From the IMG/VR virus record IMGVR_UViG_3300032038_000036, positions 36,727 to 100,726 of that record: a stretch of 64,000 nt of DNA. One strand, given 5' to 3'. Position numbers and translations under genes: made by a program. This DNA is from a virus. Lineage: Duplodnaviria; Caudoviricetes. The notes below the pieces were generated by a model. The model made no database searches and had not been told where the DNA came from. It was given only the letters and a program-made list of their open reading frames with translations. Positions within the stretch are counted from its first letter, which is position 1. Each line of letters opens with the position of its first letter. This document shows, piece after piece, positions 4,609 to 30,827 of the stretch.

Positions 4609-7600
4609 TTAATTAATTGAGAGAGTTATAAAGTATTTATTAGTATCACGAGATTCATCAAATGCAGTATAATACATTACTGTCAAATTAAGTCCCGGAT
4701 ATACAATGTTATTATTTATAACATGTGAACCTTGTATTAAATCATTCTTAAATAATATATGGGTTCTATTTAAGTTTTGTGTTCCATATTTTGTATTTAT
4801 ATAATACATCTTTTCATTAAATTGTGGATTTTCAATTACTCGTCCATTTTCATCATATAAGATATTTTTAATATTATAAATATTTAAAGATATCATATCT
4901 TCAGCATTAGGCAATGTAATATTAAAATATGTTTTGAATAAATTATATAAAGATAACTTATAACTTGAAATACCTGTTATTTCATTAAGTTCTATTGAAT
5001 TTACTAACATATTTTCTGCTGTAAATAATGAAGATGTATAAGCAGCACTACACATTCCTATTAATGGAATTGTCATAATATTATATGTAACTCCATTAAC
5101 AATTGGTTGGAATAAAATACTTTGTTTTGATATTATTTGCTTTGATGCATTTAATATAATATTATTAAAGTCAATTGATACAGTATCGTGTGTACTAAAT
5201 TTTGTTTTTTCAAGTTCATCAACAAGTGTTTCAGTACCCACATTGATATTTGTATTTGTTGAACCAATATGTAATGTTCCTTTATTTTGTTCATCATATG
5301 ATGTACCTAAATATGCGTTATAAATTTTACCATTTTGGTCAAGTGATACAATATTTAATCTGTTAAGTACATTAAAGTTTCTATTAAATACTTCTCCAAA
5401 ATCTAATGATGGAACATTTTCATTAAATACAAATTCATTATAATTATATTTTGATTTTTCAACTTGTTCAATTTGTATTTGATGTTCAACTATATTTTCT
5501 GTTTCTGCATATTGTTTTTCAATTGTCTGTATTAATGATTCAACATTTTGTATTTGTGCACCATCAACATATACTTTAGATTTTCTTTCACTTCCAATTA
5601 ATGTACCAATGTTTCTTAACTCTTTAATAATTTCTGTTTTAGATGTTGAAACAGTAGACTGTGATTTGTAATATTTAGGATAAAGTGAATTTGTTGTTCT
5701 AATGTTTCCTAATGATGGTAAATACTTATTTGTTTGTGAATGTGTTATATGATTATTGTTTAATGTAACTGTATCGTTATATTGTATAATACCATTAAGA
5801 TCATTTAAGTATTGTCCTATATTATCATTAACTGCTGAATATTCTTCAGATTGTTTATTCTTAATGATCATCCAATTGTTTTCATTAATAGCTAATCTTT
5901 CTTGACTTAATTGTGTAATGATTGCTTTCAATAAAATTAAATCTTGGTCATTTAAGTTTTCAACTGTTTCATCATTTGTTGCATTAATAAGATTTACTGT
6001 TGAACCTAATGCTAATGCATAATCTGAATCTATTTGATTAATACATTGGAACTCATATTCATCATCAGATACTTCAGCAACACGCCACATTGTTAATATA
6101 TAAGATCCCTTATAATATGTCTTATATAATGTATCTGATAAACATTCAAGATCTGATATACTTAATATAATACTATTTCTAAAATATTCAAAGTTGTTTT
6201 TATTTATAGTAGGAATATAAGCACAACATTGAATTTTTATTGTGTATGTATTTTCAAATAAAGCAGGATGAACATTAAAGAATTTCTGTTCAAATTTTGC
6301 ACCTTTTATTTTTTCATAATTTGATACTGCATTAAGCAAATAATAACTACTTTTTTCATCACAAGCTTTATCTCTATTATATATAAGAATAATATTAGGA
6401 TTGCCTGCATCTTTACCAACAGCTCTTATAGTAGTATTTTTATCATTAATACTCCAGTTATTTTCAGCATTAATATAAGGCATTGTAAAGATATCTTTGA
6501 TTATAACAGAATTAATAAGTTTTTCATTATTTCTATTATAATTAATTTCAAAATTGTATGTTTTTACTTTACCTATATCATTATCATAATCAAATATAAG
6601 ATTAGTATTTTCTTCCCAGAAATGATTGCTTGTATTTGTTGTTTTTAAGTTAACATAATTTATATATGTATTAGTTGAGTAATAAATATACATACTATCG
6701 TTACTATTACATATATAATGGAATTGATAATTAATTGGAATATATAAGAATGTTTCTTTTGAAAAATCTGGTTTATCATCATTAGATTTTACACAAGCCT
6801 TTTCATACAATTTTGATAATATTCGTTTGATAAATCCTGCACGTGTTTCAAGATAATACTTTTCATTATAATAACTAAAAATATTATAATAAAGATTATT
6901 ACAGTCTTCATTTAACTGATATATATCTTCATTTAAATTAATTCCATATTCTGCCTTAAAATTAGCTACAATATTTTCAAATTCAGTTGAATTTATTGAA
7001 AAGAACTCATTATTGTTTGAATTATATACAAGTTCAATTGTTCCTTTATCATATAATGAATTTGGTAAATAATTCAATATTAATGATATTGGAGAATTTG
7101 ATGAAAAATGATATGAATCAACATCGTTATAACTTAATAATTCGTTTATATCATTATATTCTGCTCTTATTAATGAAAATGGAATTTCATTTGTACTTTT
7201 GTAATTACTAAACTTAAATGAAGATAAGAAACTATTATAATACTTGTTATCTAATTCTTTAAGTGTTTTAGCATTAAACATATAAAATTTCATTTCATAT
7301 TCATCAGATAATGCACTATTTGAATATCCATTACTTTTATATGTTTTATTTGTTATCATCATCAAATGAAACCAGTCCCCGTTATCATCTGAATTATCAT
7401 AATAAATCTTTGCACCAAATTTTAATAAATTAGAATTAATATCAAACTTATAGTAATATAAAATAGAATTTAAATCATCGTCATCATTAGTACCCATCAT
7501 TTTACCAACGAGCATAAATGTAAGATCTTTACCATCGTTTATACAAATACTATTCTTTCCATATTTTTCAATGCCACCTAAAATAATATCAAAACTTAAA

Positions 7601-14552: not shown

Positions 14553-14720
14553 AAATTTACTGGTGAAGAATAGAGATACTTCATAAGTTTGCAAAACTGG
14601 TGGAAGCAAGTTCCTTGTCGGTTCGAGTCCGGCCCATGGTCATTATGTACCGCGGTGGTGAAACTGGTAAACACGCTGGTCCTTTTATAATTATTCTTTA
14701 TTCGACAATTCCGTAAATTT
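14553..14720 (+). ncRNA. Y-RNA-like module RNA 1 enclosing a permuted tRNA
   Basis: AAATTTAC-T-GG-TGAA-GAATAGAGA-TACTTC...T arm/acceptor/D arm...TCTTTATTC-GACAATT-CC-GTAAATTT. Confidence 0.75.
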
Positions 14721-14726
14721 TTTATT

Positions 14727-14800: not shown

Positions 14801-14939
14801 AATTATCTGGTGTATATAAGAGTTACTTCGATTACTTTTTTAATTAAGTGGTTTTAATGCAATTTTTTCAGAATTGATTCCTCGGTTCGAATCCGAGAGA
14901 AAGTTTCATAACAATACTTTTATAGCTGTTCCGATAATT
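14801..14939 (+). ncRNA. Y-RNA-like module RNA 2 containing a lone T arm
   Basis: AATTATC-T-GG-TGTA-TATAAGAGT-TACTTC...ACTTTTATA-GCTGTT-CC-GATAATT. Confidence 0.75.
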
Positions 14940-17217: not shown

Positions 17218-17542
17218 CTTTGGGAATTAGCAAAATGATTCGTATGAAAGTCATTATCTGTAAATATTTGCGTAAGGCCGCGATTAGGCCGAAAGTTCTC
17301 GAGATCAATAATATTTATAATAATGATAAGTAATGACAGAAAGAGAAATTAGTAAGATTAGCTAACTTACGAAATTGAATTTGAAGAAGCGAACATACTG
17401 CGCTACCCGTGGGTGGGTAGAGGTCCTGTGAAAGTCAGTGGTTCCCGACCGTATAATGAAGTTTTGAAAATTTCATATTTTCAATAACACCGGTCCCATC
17501 CTATGCTACTCGAGGTAGGCATGGAACTAGGCCGGTGACCAT

Positions 17543-17719: not shown

Positions 17720-17862
17720 AATTCCTTGTTGAATTGAAGAGTTACTTCTTAATCCGCCAGAAACTTTGGATTTTTAGCTTAATTGGTTAGAGCGCGGGCC
17801 TGCAAAGCCCGAGGTGATGGTTCAAGCCCATAAATATACTTTTCGAGAATGTTACAGGAATT
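17720..17862 (+). ncRNA. Y-RNA-like module RNA 5 enclosing D arm, GCA anticodon arm and T arm (module replaces acceptor stem)
   Basis: AATTCCT-T-GT-TGAA-TTGAAGAGT-TACTTC...CGGGC-CTGCAAA-GCCCG...ACTTTTCGA-GAATGTT-AC-AGGAATT. Confidence 0.75.
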
Positions 17863-18231: not shown

Positions 18232-18363
18232 CGCGGAGTGGTGAAATTTAAAATTAGACTTTATTCGCTGTTGCTTCGAATGAATGCTGTAGATTAGAGT
18301 TACTTCGGTATACACGCTTTTCAGGAAAAAAAGATTATGTTGGTTCGAGTCCAACCTCCGCGA
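18232..18363 (+). tRNA. tRNA-like RNA (Leu-type D arm, ambiguous anticodon) with module inserted in D loop
   Basis: acceptor CGCGGAG/CTCCGCG; module 18258-18306. Confidence 0.65.
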
Positions 18364-29302: not shown

Positions 29303-29442
29303 GGGTAGGTAACATAAAAAACGATTTAAAACTTCGGTCGTTGTTCTCCGTAAGGTAGTGTAGATTGTGAGTTACTTCAAAGGATTAATGTATTTGTCTG
29401 TTAAACAAAAGAGTGTTGGTTCGAGTCCAACCCTACCCGCCA
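29303..29442 (+). tRNA. tRNA-Asn(GUU) with module in D loop
   Basis: GGGTAGG/CCTACCC-G-CCA; TTTGT-CTGTTAA-ACAAA; module 29331-29378. Confidence 0.8.
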
Positions 29443-29537
29443 CTTATAAGGGAACCGAGTTATGGGGTACTCGGGGATAGGAAAGTTTGGAAACGTATTT
29501 GTCCTGTAAATCAGTCTTTCAAATAAACAACCCTTAT

Positions 29538-29608
29538 GGAGCATTAGGCTAACGGTAAACTGCTCCCGTGCTCTGGGAGTGTTCGAGGTTCAATTCCTTG
29601 GTGTTCCG
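29538..29608 (+). tRNA. tRNA-Ser(GCU)-like with short variable loop
   Basis: CTCCC-GTGCTCT-GGGAG. Confidence 0.6.
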
Positions 29609-29614
29609 CAAATT

Positions 29615-29744
29615 GGTGACGTAGCTAAACGGTAGATAAACGACTTTATTCGCTGTTACTCAGAAATGATGTTGTAGAACAGAGTTACTTCAAAGCATTA
29701 ATCAGTCAAATTAAGGAAAGTTGGTTCGACTCCAACCGTCACCG
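29615..29744 (+). tRNA. tRNA-Asp(GUC)-like with module in D loop
   Basis: TTAAT-CAGTCAA-ATTAA (A33); module 29643-29691. Confidence 0.7.
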
Positions 29745-29781
29745 CAATAATAAATTTTTGAAAATTTTATATTTTCAATAT

Positions 29782-29929
29782 TGGGTAGAAGTATAAGGGT
29801 AAAACAAATTTCAAAATGACTTTATTCGCTGTTACTCAGAAATGATGTTGTAGAACAGAGTTACTTCAAATTTAAATGTACATTTCGTCGTAATCGAAAG
29901 AGATGGTGGTTCGAGTCCACCCTACCCAA
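29782..29929 (+). tRNA. tRNA-like RNA (GUA or CGU anticodon) with module in D loop
   Basis: TTTCG-TCGTAAT-CGAAA; module 29819-29867. Confidence 0.65.
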
Positions 29930-29998
29930 CAATTCTCGTCGAGCAGCTGGTTTTCAGGGGCTTGTCACCAGCTGGGAACAAAAAAGACCGCCCACCAT

Positions 29999-30085
29999 GT
30001 GTCTATGGCCGAGTGGTTGAAGGCAGCAGACTGTTAATCTGCCGTGGAGAAATCCCCATCGTAGGTTCGATCCCTACTGGGCACG
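29999..30085 (+). tRNA. tRNA-Asn(GUU) with class II variable arm
   Basis: GCAGA-CTGTTAA-TCTGC; long V arm. Confidence 0.82.
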
Positions 30086-30092
30086 CCCTAAG

Positions 30093-30201: not shown

Positions 30202-30223
30202 TATGTTATATTCTTGCAAGAAT

Positions 30224-30295
30224 CGGGATTTGGTGTAATGGTAAGCACGGGGTTGTATTTGCGCAACCAGGTGAAGTTCGAATCTTCGGTCCCAA
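30224..30295 (+). ncRNA. tRNA-like RNA with 8-nt anticodon loop
   Basis: GGTTG-TATTTGCG-CAACC; D and T arms present. Confidence 0.55.
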
Positions 30296-30562
30296 CAAAT
30301 AACTATCGGTGTCCGAGTGAAACGGATATGTTTCTATATTGATGTGTCGGCGGACTGTGTTAAGACTTAGAATTAGGGCGCTACTTATCGACGGATAAGC
30401 AATCTTGAAAGGGGTACTTAACAGCATCAAGAAATAAACAAGGTTAAAAGTCAAGCAAGCCCGGGATAAAGTGAGGAACTAAGTTACTTGTTTTGGAAAC
30501 GATCACGGCAGGGATATAGCACCTGCAAATAATGGGTTCGACTCCCATGGCCGCTACAAGAT

Positions 30563-30700
30563 TGCCATTTAGCTCAGTCGGGTAGAGCACGTAACAATAC
30601 TTTTGTCGCTGGTTACGTAATATCATTAATTACTGTTGAAGATGAGAGTTACTTCAGCCTTTTAAGCTCGGGGTCGTGGGTTCGAGCCCCACAGTGGCAA
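30563..30700 (+). tRNA. tRNA-Lys(UUU) with 64-nt module insert in anticodon stem
   Basis: removing 30592-30655 restores CGAGC-CTTTTAA-GCTCG. Confidence 0.78.
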
Positions 30701-30827
30701 CTAATAAAAATATATCAGCATCTAAAACAGGGCCGAAGGAGAAACAATAGGCGCGCATTGTTCAATGGTTTGGGTCTGTCCGATGAGAAAAATCTTTGAG
30801 GCTAAGCCATGATGGATATATTTTTTC

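Follow-up and report, generated by a model that had tools for sequence, protein, structure and literature searches.

tRNA-shaped RNAs carrying a putative Ro60-docking handle in the tRNA array of a tailed phage

What are three transfer RNA (tRNA)-like genes whose D loops have been filled with a further structured element, and do they still serve in decoding? This question is raised by positions 29303-29929 of a 64,000-nucleotide (nt) stretch of viral DNA, here called the window, which corresponds to bases 36727-100726 of the IMG/VR virus record IMGVR_UViG_3300032038_000036 (100.7 kb, rated about 35% complete). The phage is tailed and of low GC content, with terminase and portal genes present, and ARAGORN finds 61 tRNA genes in the window, all on the plus strand between 13.9 and 33.2 kb. 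An initial annotation, made from the letters alone, described three clustered tRNAs in this array with a module in the D loop, two of them sharing an identical 53-nt copy. We propose, with a probability of about two in three, that these three genes (t1, t2 and t3) encode non-canonical tRNA-shaped Y RNAs, that is, tRNA mimics that would dock the protein Ro60, rather than ordinary decoding tRNAs. The genes and their modules, or handles, are the following:

29303-29442, plus strand: t1, tRNA-shaped RNA with anticodon GUU, U33, A37, G73 and an encoded CCA; capped handle in the D loop
29331-29378, plus strand: handle of t1; covariance model R1 gives 50.7 bits, E value 1.3e-8
29615-29744, plus strand: t2, tRNA-shaped RNA with anticodon GUC and A33; capped handle in the D loop, 3' of G18 G19
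29642-29694, plus strand: 53-nt stretch of t2, with the handle core at 29643-29691; R1 gives 64.1 bits
29782-29929, plus strand: t3, tRNA-shaped RNA with anticodon GUA and C33; lineage-specific, with a t1-like body and the t2 module
29818-29870, plus strand: second identical copy of the 53-nt stretch, in t3, with the handle core at 29819-29867

Cloverleaf bodies and the handle in their D loops

Each of the three genes forms a full cloverleaf with an acceptor stem of 7 base pairs (bp), a D stem, an anticodon arm and a T arm. In t1 the acceptor stem (29303-29309 / 29432-29438) is followed by G73 and CCA at 29439-42, the D stem has 4 bp (29312-15 / 29388-91) and the anticodon loop (29398-29404) is canonical, in agreement with the earlier description of an Asn(GUU) tRNA with canonical arms and an encoded CCA. 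The corresponding elements are found at 29615-21 / 29737-43 (acceptor), 29624-27 / 29693-96 (D stem) and 29703-09 (anticodon loop) in t2, and at 29782-88 / 29922-28, 29791-94 / 29878-81 and 29888-94 in t3. The D stem closes around the module in every case, so that the placement of the module in the D loop stands; with the handle included, the D loops measure 72 (t1), 65 (t2) and 83 nt (t3), against about 7-11 nt in a canonical elongator tRNA. The features of a tRNA-like elbow are also present in all three, with T arms bearing a TTCGA loop, D stems and the GG of the D loop. U33 occurs in t1 only, and its reported loss from the genes at 29615 and 29782 and from a further copy near 18232 was borne out (A33, C33 and A33, respectively).

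None of the three intact genes was called by ARAGORN. After removal in silico of the module and part of the linkers, the program returned Asn-gtt for t1, Asp-gtc for t2 and Tyr-gta for t3, isoacceptors that are already present in the array in two to four copies each. The Rfam tRNA model matched t2 from end to end (29615-29744, 45.3 bits, positions 1-71) and t1 partially (34 bits), and gave no match to t3.

With regard to the module itself, 12 copies in the window follow one common plan: a helix P1, a bulged U, 2 bp, an asymmetric internal loop in which UGWA faces a strand of 6-8 nt (G-N-UU, ending in UU), a 9-bp helix P2 and then an invariant unpaired UACUUC. In six of the copies the ends of the RNA make P1, and P2 opens onto a cargo. 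The other six, including those of t1-t3, are circularly permuted: a small loop, which in t1-t3 is a GNRA tetraloop, closes P1, and P2 leads into the tRNA body. In t1 the order is thus the 3' strand of P2, a 6-nt loop, 2 bp, a 2-bp P1 with its GNRA cap, the bulged U, 2 bp, UGUA, the 5' strand of P2 with one bulge, and UACUUC. The remaining copies in the window are:

18233-18361, plus strand: fourth D-loop chimera, a paralog of t1-t3, with anticodon GGA and A33
30564-30702, plus strand: Lys(UUU)-like chimera with a complete D arm and the capped handle between the D arm and the anticodon stem
14554-14722, plus strand: free-standing handle in the layout of a YrlA RNA, its cargo being a T arm, an acceptor stem closed as a hairpin and a D arm
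starts near 14801, 16155, 16317, 17720 and 32250, plus strand: further free-standing handles with the same shared plan

The handle motif was counted 18 times against 2.9 expected, and the covariance model recovered the six capped copies of the window, all on the plus strand, with E values from 1e-8 to 1e-11. Pairing was then evaluated over 21 capped copies from five phage lineages, with 500 shuffles and slid partners as controls. The proportion of paired cells was 87.3%, compared to 65% in shuffled and 30-49% in slid alignments; changes on both sides of a pair were seen in 11 of the 14 handle pairs, and none of the 500 shuffles reached the observed value. RNAalifold recovered P1 and the top of P2 unaided, and the bulged U was present in all of 75 non-redundant copies, though the scan did not require it. 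It is evident that the module is a real, conserved, structured RNA element.

Other identities of the element were tried and rejected. A K-turn or loop E in the internal loop was ruled out on inspection of the copies, whose 3' strand is without the required GA, and an alternative hairpin between UGWAG and CUUCA was dropped since the W position varies without compensation. Over the 20-kb array only tRNA reached the Rfam gathering score, which leaves out a self-cleaving ribozyme or another known RNA family; ribozyme, Y_RNA and YrlA models gave no match there even at E values up to 5, and weak matches of the C/D snoRNA type (E about 2) were taken as chance.

The handle beside Ro60 genes

A blastn search against cultured phages gave a match in Bacteroides phage crAss001, in the non-coding gap just 3' of gp96, a protein annotated with the TROVE domain of Ro60. 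The gap, about 900 nt long and unannotated (MH675552.1 95,965-96,869; L172 1185-2090), holds three or four handle-bearing RNAs, among them a single free handle and two tRNA-like RNAs in which the handle is capped. One of the latter has its handle after the D arm (Rfam tRNA, 46.6 bits) and the other in the D loop. ARAGORN called no tRNA in this gap, and the published crAss001 papers that we consulted mention only the TROVE protein, not the RNAs beside it. The same RNAs directly follow TROVE genes in four contigs of crAss size (L183, L185, L186 and L189), and in L185 an RNA built similarly to the Lys(UUU)-like chimera lies directly 3' of the TROVE gene.

The association extends beyond these phages. 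Among 80 TROVE loci taken from genome assemblies of bacteria and archaea, some or many of them probably phage contigs binned into metagenome-assembled genomes (MAGs), a structural scan gave 61 handles on the strand of the TROVE gene versus 7 on the opposite one. In Acidobacteriota, handles are located just upstream of the TROVE gene, and the cargo within them consists of a T arm, an acceptor stem closed as a hairpin, and a D arm. The Rfam YrlA model matched these acidobacterial handle RNAs at 28-55 bits, with E values down to 1e-9, all below its cut-off of 69. The handle family is thus tied genomically to Ro60 genes. Hardly any capped handles were seen at the TROVE loci of genome assemblies, and for this reason the capped form looks like a phage form. 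A loose pattern applied to TROVE-bearing records gave no excess over its control, and a 14-base scan of viral contigs was discarded as unspecific.

Among five related contigs that we compared with the window (G001-G005), G003 is a 98%-complete relative of 376 kb whose TerL is 78% identical, and it has handle modules in its tRNA arrays. This jumbo relative encodes RtcB and a 482-residue TROVE plus vWA protein, for which the best match among solved structures is Ro60 of Thermus phage phiLo (PMC12135203), and which is 59% identical to gp96 of crAss001 over its full length. We also compared the handle with the 5' end of Mycobacterium smegmatis YrlA as given by a printed primer, this RNA having been shown to bind Rsr (PMC4201824); the same grammar of bulged U, GG and UGAU is found in both. 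The module is therefore most readily read, on comparative grounds, as the Ro60-side terminal stem of a YrlA-type Y RNA, circularly permuted in t1-t3, because of its adjacency to TROVE genes, the YrlA-model matches, the invariant bulged U and the M. smegmatis grammar.

Two of the TROVE-bearing contigs contained further structured RNAs. In L186, a pistol ribozyme (6067-6127, 57.9 bits against a cut-off of 34.5) is located a few hundred bases 3' of the TROVE-linked RNAs and a tRNA. In L194, a TROVE gene with handle RNAs is preceded by a tmRNA (935-1459, 52 bits); this contig, binned as a Nitrososphaerota MAG, is probably phage DNA.

The shared module and the origin of t3

The identity between 29642-29694 and 29818-29870 that the initial annotation described is exact over 53 nt, and it breaks at the first base on each side. 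An assembly artefact is an unlikely source of this identity, because the two halves of t3 that flank the module pair with each other (7 + 4 bp). When orthologous loci were compared for presence or absence, t1 and t2 had orthologs in G001 and G002 (t2 being 98.5% identical to that of G001), and a counterpart of t3 was found in none of the five related contigs. The t1 ortholog of G002 displays three double changes in the acceptor stem and the anticodon GAU in place of GUU, and that of G001 one double change in the anticodon stem; such compensatory changes indicate selection on the RNA.

Comparison of the tRNA bodies gave scores of 35 for t1 with t3 and 22.5 for t1 with t2, against 13 or less for any canonical tRNA of the array. 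Since the bodies of t1, t2, t3 and the copy near 18232 are closer to one another than to any canonical array tRNA, the D-loop chimeras appear to be one paralogous family with drifting anticodons. Independent insertion into isoacceptor tRNAs was rejected for this family on the same comparison, and holds only for the Lys chimera at 30564, the body of which resembles the Lys tRNAs of the array. The D-loop graft is moreover an old and kept design, as the same graft exists in crAss-like phages.

The module was copied into t3 recently. The absence of t3 from the relatives, together with its t1-like body and t2 module, supports t3 as a mosaic produced by recent recombination or gene conversion limited to the sole homologous stretch. 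Of the earlier proposal that the module was duplicated or converted independently of its host tRNA, so much holds that the t3 module is a recent copy, made separately from the body; the idea of one insert hitting different host tRNAs does not, given how alike the bodies are. The spacer just 5' of t3 (29747-29780) matches a spacer of the first tRNA block (17453-17486) at 91% identity, which hints at assembly of t3 by recombination.

Several neighbours of these genes are themselves unusual. Between t1 and t2 lies an odd 72-nt tRNA (29538-29609, 35 bits, conserved in G001) that ARAGORN calls Ser-gct, despite the absence of a long variable arm, and that carries C37. A 91-nt tRNA at 29998-30088 has the long variable arm of a class II body yet the anticodon GUU (Asn by ARAGORN, 56 bits by Rfam, 96.7% conserved in G003) and could be a recoding or mis-assigned tRNA. 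ARAGORN gives the tRNA at 30223-30296 an 8-nt anticodon loop with the four-base anticodon tttg. The following segment, 30297-30560, is conserved in G001, G002 and G003 and ends in a T-arm-like piece just 5' of the Lys chimera; a weak YrlA match (E value 0.77) falls at 30516-30615. Two free-standing handles have whole cloverleaf tRNAs nested within them, namely Glu-UUC (14834-14905, in 14801-14935) and Cys-GCA (17768-17840, in 17720-17860), and after RNase P and 3' processing the leader and trailer would remain paired as a two-piece handle.

Possible roles and comparison with known Y RNAs

Given the genomic association and the known behaviour of Y RNAs, we infer that the handle would dock the phage Ro60 (TROVE plus vWA) protein, and that the chimera would be stable unspliced. 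The tRNA body could then offer the elbow of the acceptor and T arms, as well as the anticodon arm, to tRNA-binding partners, for which repair, processing or modification enzymes and host anticodon nucleases are candidates. Ro60, perhaps together with the phage RtcB ligase, may in this way be tied to tRNA surveillance during infection. There are precedents for both links, as a Y RNA tethers Ro60 to PNPase in Deinococcus radiodurans and the Salmonella rsr-yrlBA-rtcBA operon connects Ro60 to RNA repair (PMC4201824, PMC7790460).

A number of observations weigh against t1-t3 being Ro60-docking Y RNAs. The Ro60-contact motif, published as GNCGAAN0-1G (GGUCCGA in vertebrates) in the 5' strand of the Y RNA stem (PMC4201824), is not found as GNCGAA in the handle, the 75 copies reading a bulged U, G/A-N, U-G-W-A and mostly G; handles with GGUGAAG are one letter off. 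The Rfam models YrlA (RF02553) and Y_RNA (RF00019) gave no match to t1-t3 or to the free handles of the window. Energy-based folding of the whole RNAs did no better than on shuffles and did not recover the structure, since A-U and G-U pairs are abundant in the helices. Moreover, no TROVE gene was found in the 100.7-kb record, of which the rated completeness is about 35%, and that of G003 lies about 200 kb from the tRNA array, with neither a handle nor a canonical YrlA found next to it. Finally, t1 looks fully chargeable, and a decoding role for it is conceivable. The earlier suggestion that loss of U33 points to non-decoding roles is in keeping with a Y RNA identity, but it has little force for t1 (U33, A37, G73 and CCA), and the t2 ortholog of G002 retains U33.

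Some of these points suit a handle that is real but binds a partner other than Ro60 here, for instance a factor that processes or stabilises the tRNA operon, the link to Ro60 being historical only. The jumbo-lineage handles do lie in tRNA arrays and not by the TROVE gene, and some enclose whole tRNAs as a paired leader and trailer. We nevertheless regard this as rather improbable, considering that the handle adjoins TROVE genes in crAss-like phages, gut MAG contigs and Acidobacteriota, and that the Ro60 proteins of the jumbo relative and crAss001 are so similar. The same position of the handle, as the terminal stem of free YrlA-like RNAs by Ro60 genes, speaks against a small intron or processing cassette that an endonuclease would excise and RtcB rejoin, to give ordinary Asn, Asp and Tyr decoders. 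Such splicing would account for the ARAGORN calls on the trimmed genes and for the canonical anticodon loop, G73 and CCA of t1, and the lineage encodes RtcB. But no 3-4-3 bulge-helix-bulge was seen when the junctions of t1-t3 were read by eye, and no Rfam intron model matched the insert, which at about 50 nt compares with at least about 200 nt for a group I core. The 5' linkers are also unequal in length and sequence, exact removal of the handle would leave D loops of 18-34 nt, t2 and t3 have A33 and C33, and the bodies are unlike those of the isoacceptors that the array already has in two to four copies. Taken together, this makes excision quite improbable.

The newness and lineage specificity of t3 and the loss of U33 in three copies could also suggest decaying tRNA pseudogenes, broken by a short repeat that spreads through recombination and is without function. 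This is highly improbable, as base changes between relatives are compensated in the helices of the handle and in the acceptor and anticodon stems, every copy is on the same strand, and the D-loop graft recurs in crAss-like phages. The reading as Ro60-docking Y RNAs can also be taken further. The chimeras might be stable "anticodon-display" Y RNAs, in which phage Ro60 sits on tRNA look-alikes that serve as bait or as sensors for the host's anticodon nucleases or for tRNA enzymes, so coupling tRNA attack to repair or decay by Ro60 and RtcB. The anticodons on display would be GUU, GUC, GUA and UUU, the letters drifting between relatives, and some chimeras, e.g. t1, may be charged. We consider this extension unlikely as it stands.

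Conservation of Ro60 and Y RNAs extends from bacteria to humans, and the question of what the tRNA-like half of bacterial Y RNAs binds is a live one. Here the handle is found on complete tRNA bodies with real and changing anticodons, in many copies within phage tRNA operons, and the cultured gut phage crAss001 has it, without annotation, next to its early TROVE gene. This provides a tractable system for asking whether Ro60 particles guard tRNAs during infection, and it draws attention to tRNA-like genes of a class that escapes tRNA finders. In the literature that we searched, we found no paper on Y RNAs of crAss-like phages or on tRNA-grafted handles, and no description of a Ro60-partner RNA laid out on a full tRNA body.

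Archaeal bulge-helix-bulge introns and the permuted tRNA genes of Cyanidioschyzon likewise show extra sequence at odd tRNA positions, the D loop included, and circular permutation; they differ from t1-t3 in that the latter have neither a bulge-helix-bulge nor the context of a splicing endonuclease, their insert being a conserved RNA that would serve as a protein handle. Animal Y RNAs and Yrn1 of D. radiodurans, bound by Ro60 or Rsr, share with the handle a stem, a single bulged pyrimidine, a short helix, an internal loop, an upper stem and an unpaired run rich in U and C, but they are without a tRNA body with an anticodon arm, and the sequence of their Ro60-contact strand is another. The parallel with human Y1 presumably extends into detail, and we treat it as a lead only.

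In the Ro60 systems of phiLo (PMC12135203) and of mycobacteriophages (PMC4201824), Ro60 and its partner RNAs are both encoded by the phage, as is probably the case here. Those phages have one or two stem-loops of the CGAA type by the gene, whereas the present array of 61 genes has twelve handles, six of them grafted onto tRNAs. The closest likeness is to YrlA, which is also modular, a stem on the Ro60 side being joined to a tRNA-like domain that has D and T arms, and which accompanies Ro60 genes in bacterial and phage genomes; the free copies of the window (e.g. 14554-14722) have its succession of elements (T arm, then closed acceptor, then D arm), with GNCGAA replaced by G/A-N-U-G-W-A in the handle. 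YrlA ends in a long stem, its acceptor is closed, and it lacks both an anticodon loop and a free CCA (10.1101/312249), and that of M. smegmatis is cleaved by RNase P and gains CCA (PMC4201824; 10.1101/312249). In t1-t3 the arrangement is the opposite throughout: they end in an open 7-bp acceptor stem, have an anticodon arm and a capped handle in the D loop, and in t1 the CCA is encoded. By definition they are therefore not YrlA RNAs, but a permuted design that retains the whole tRNA.
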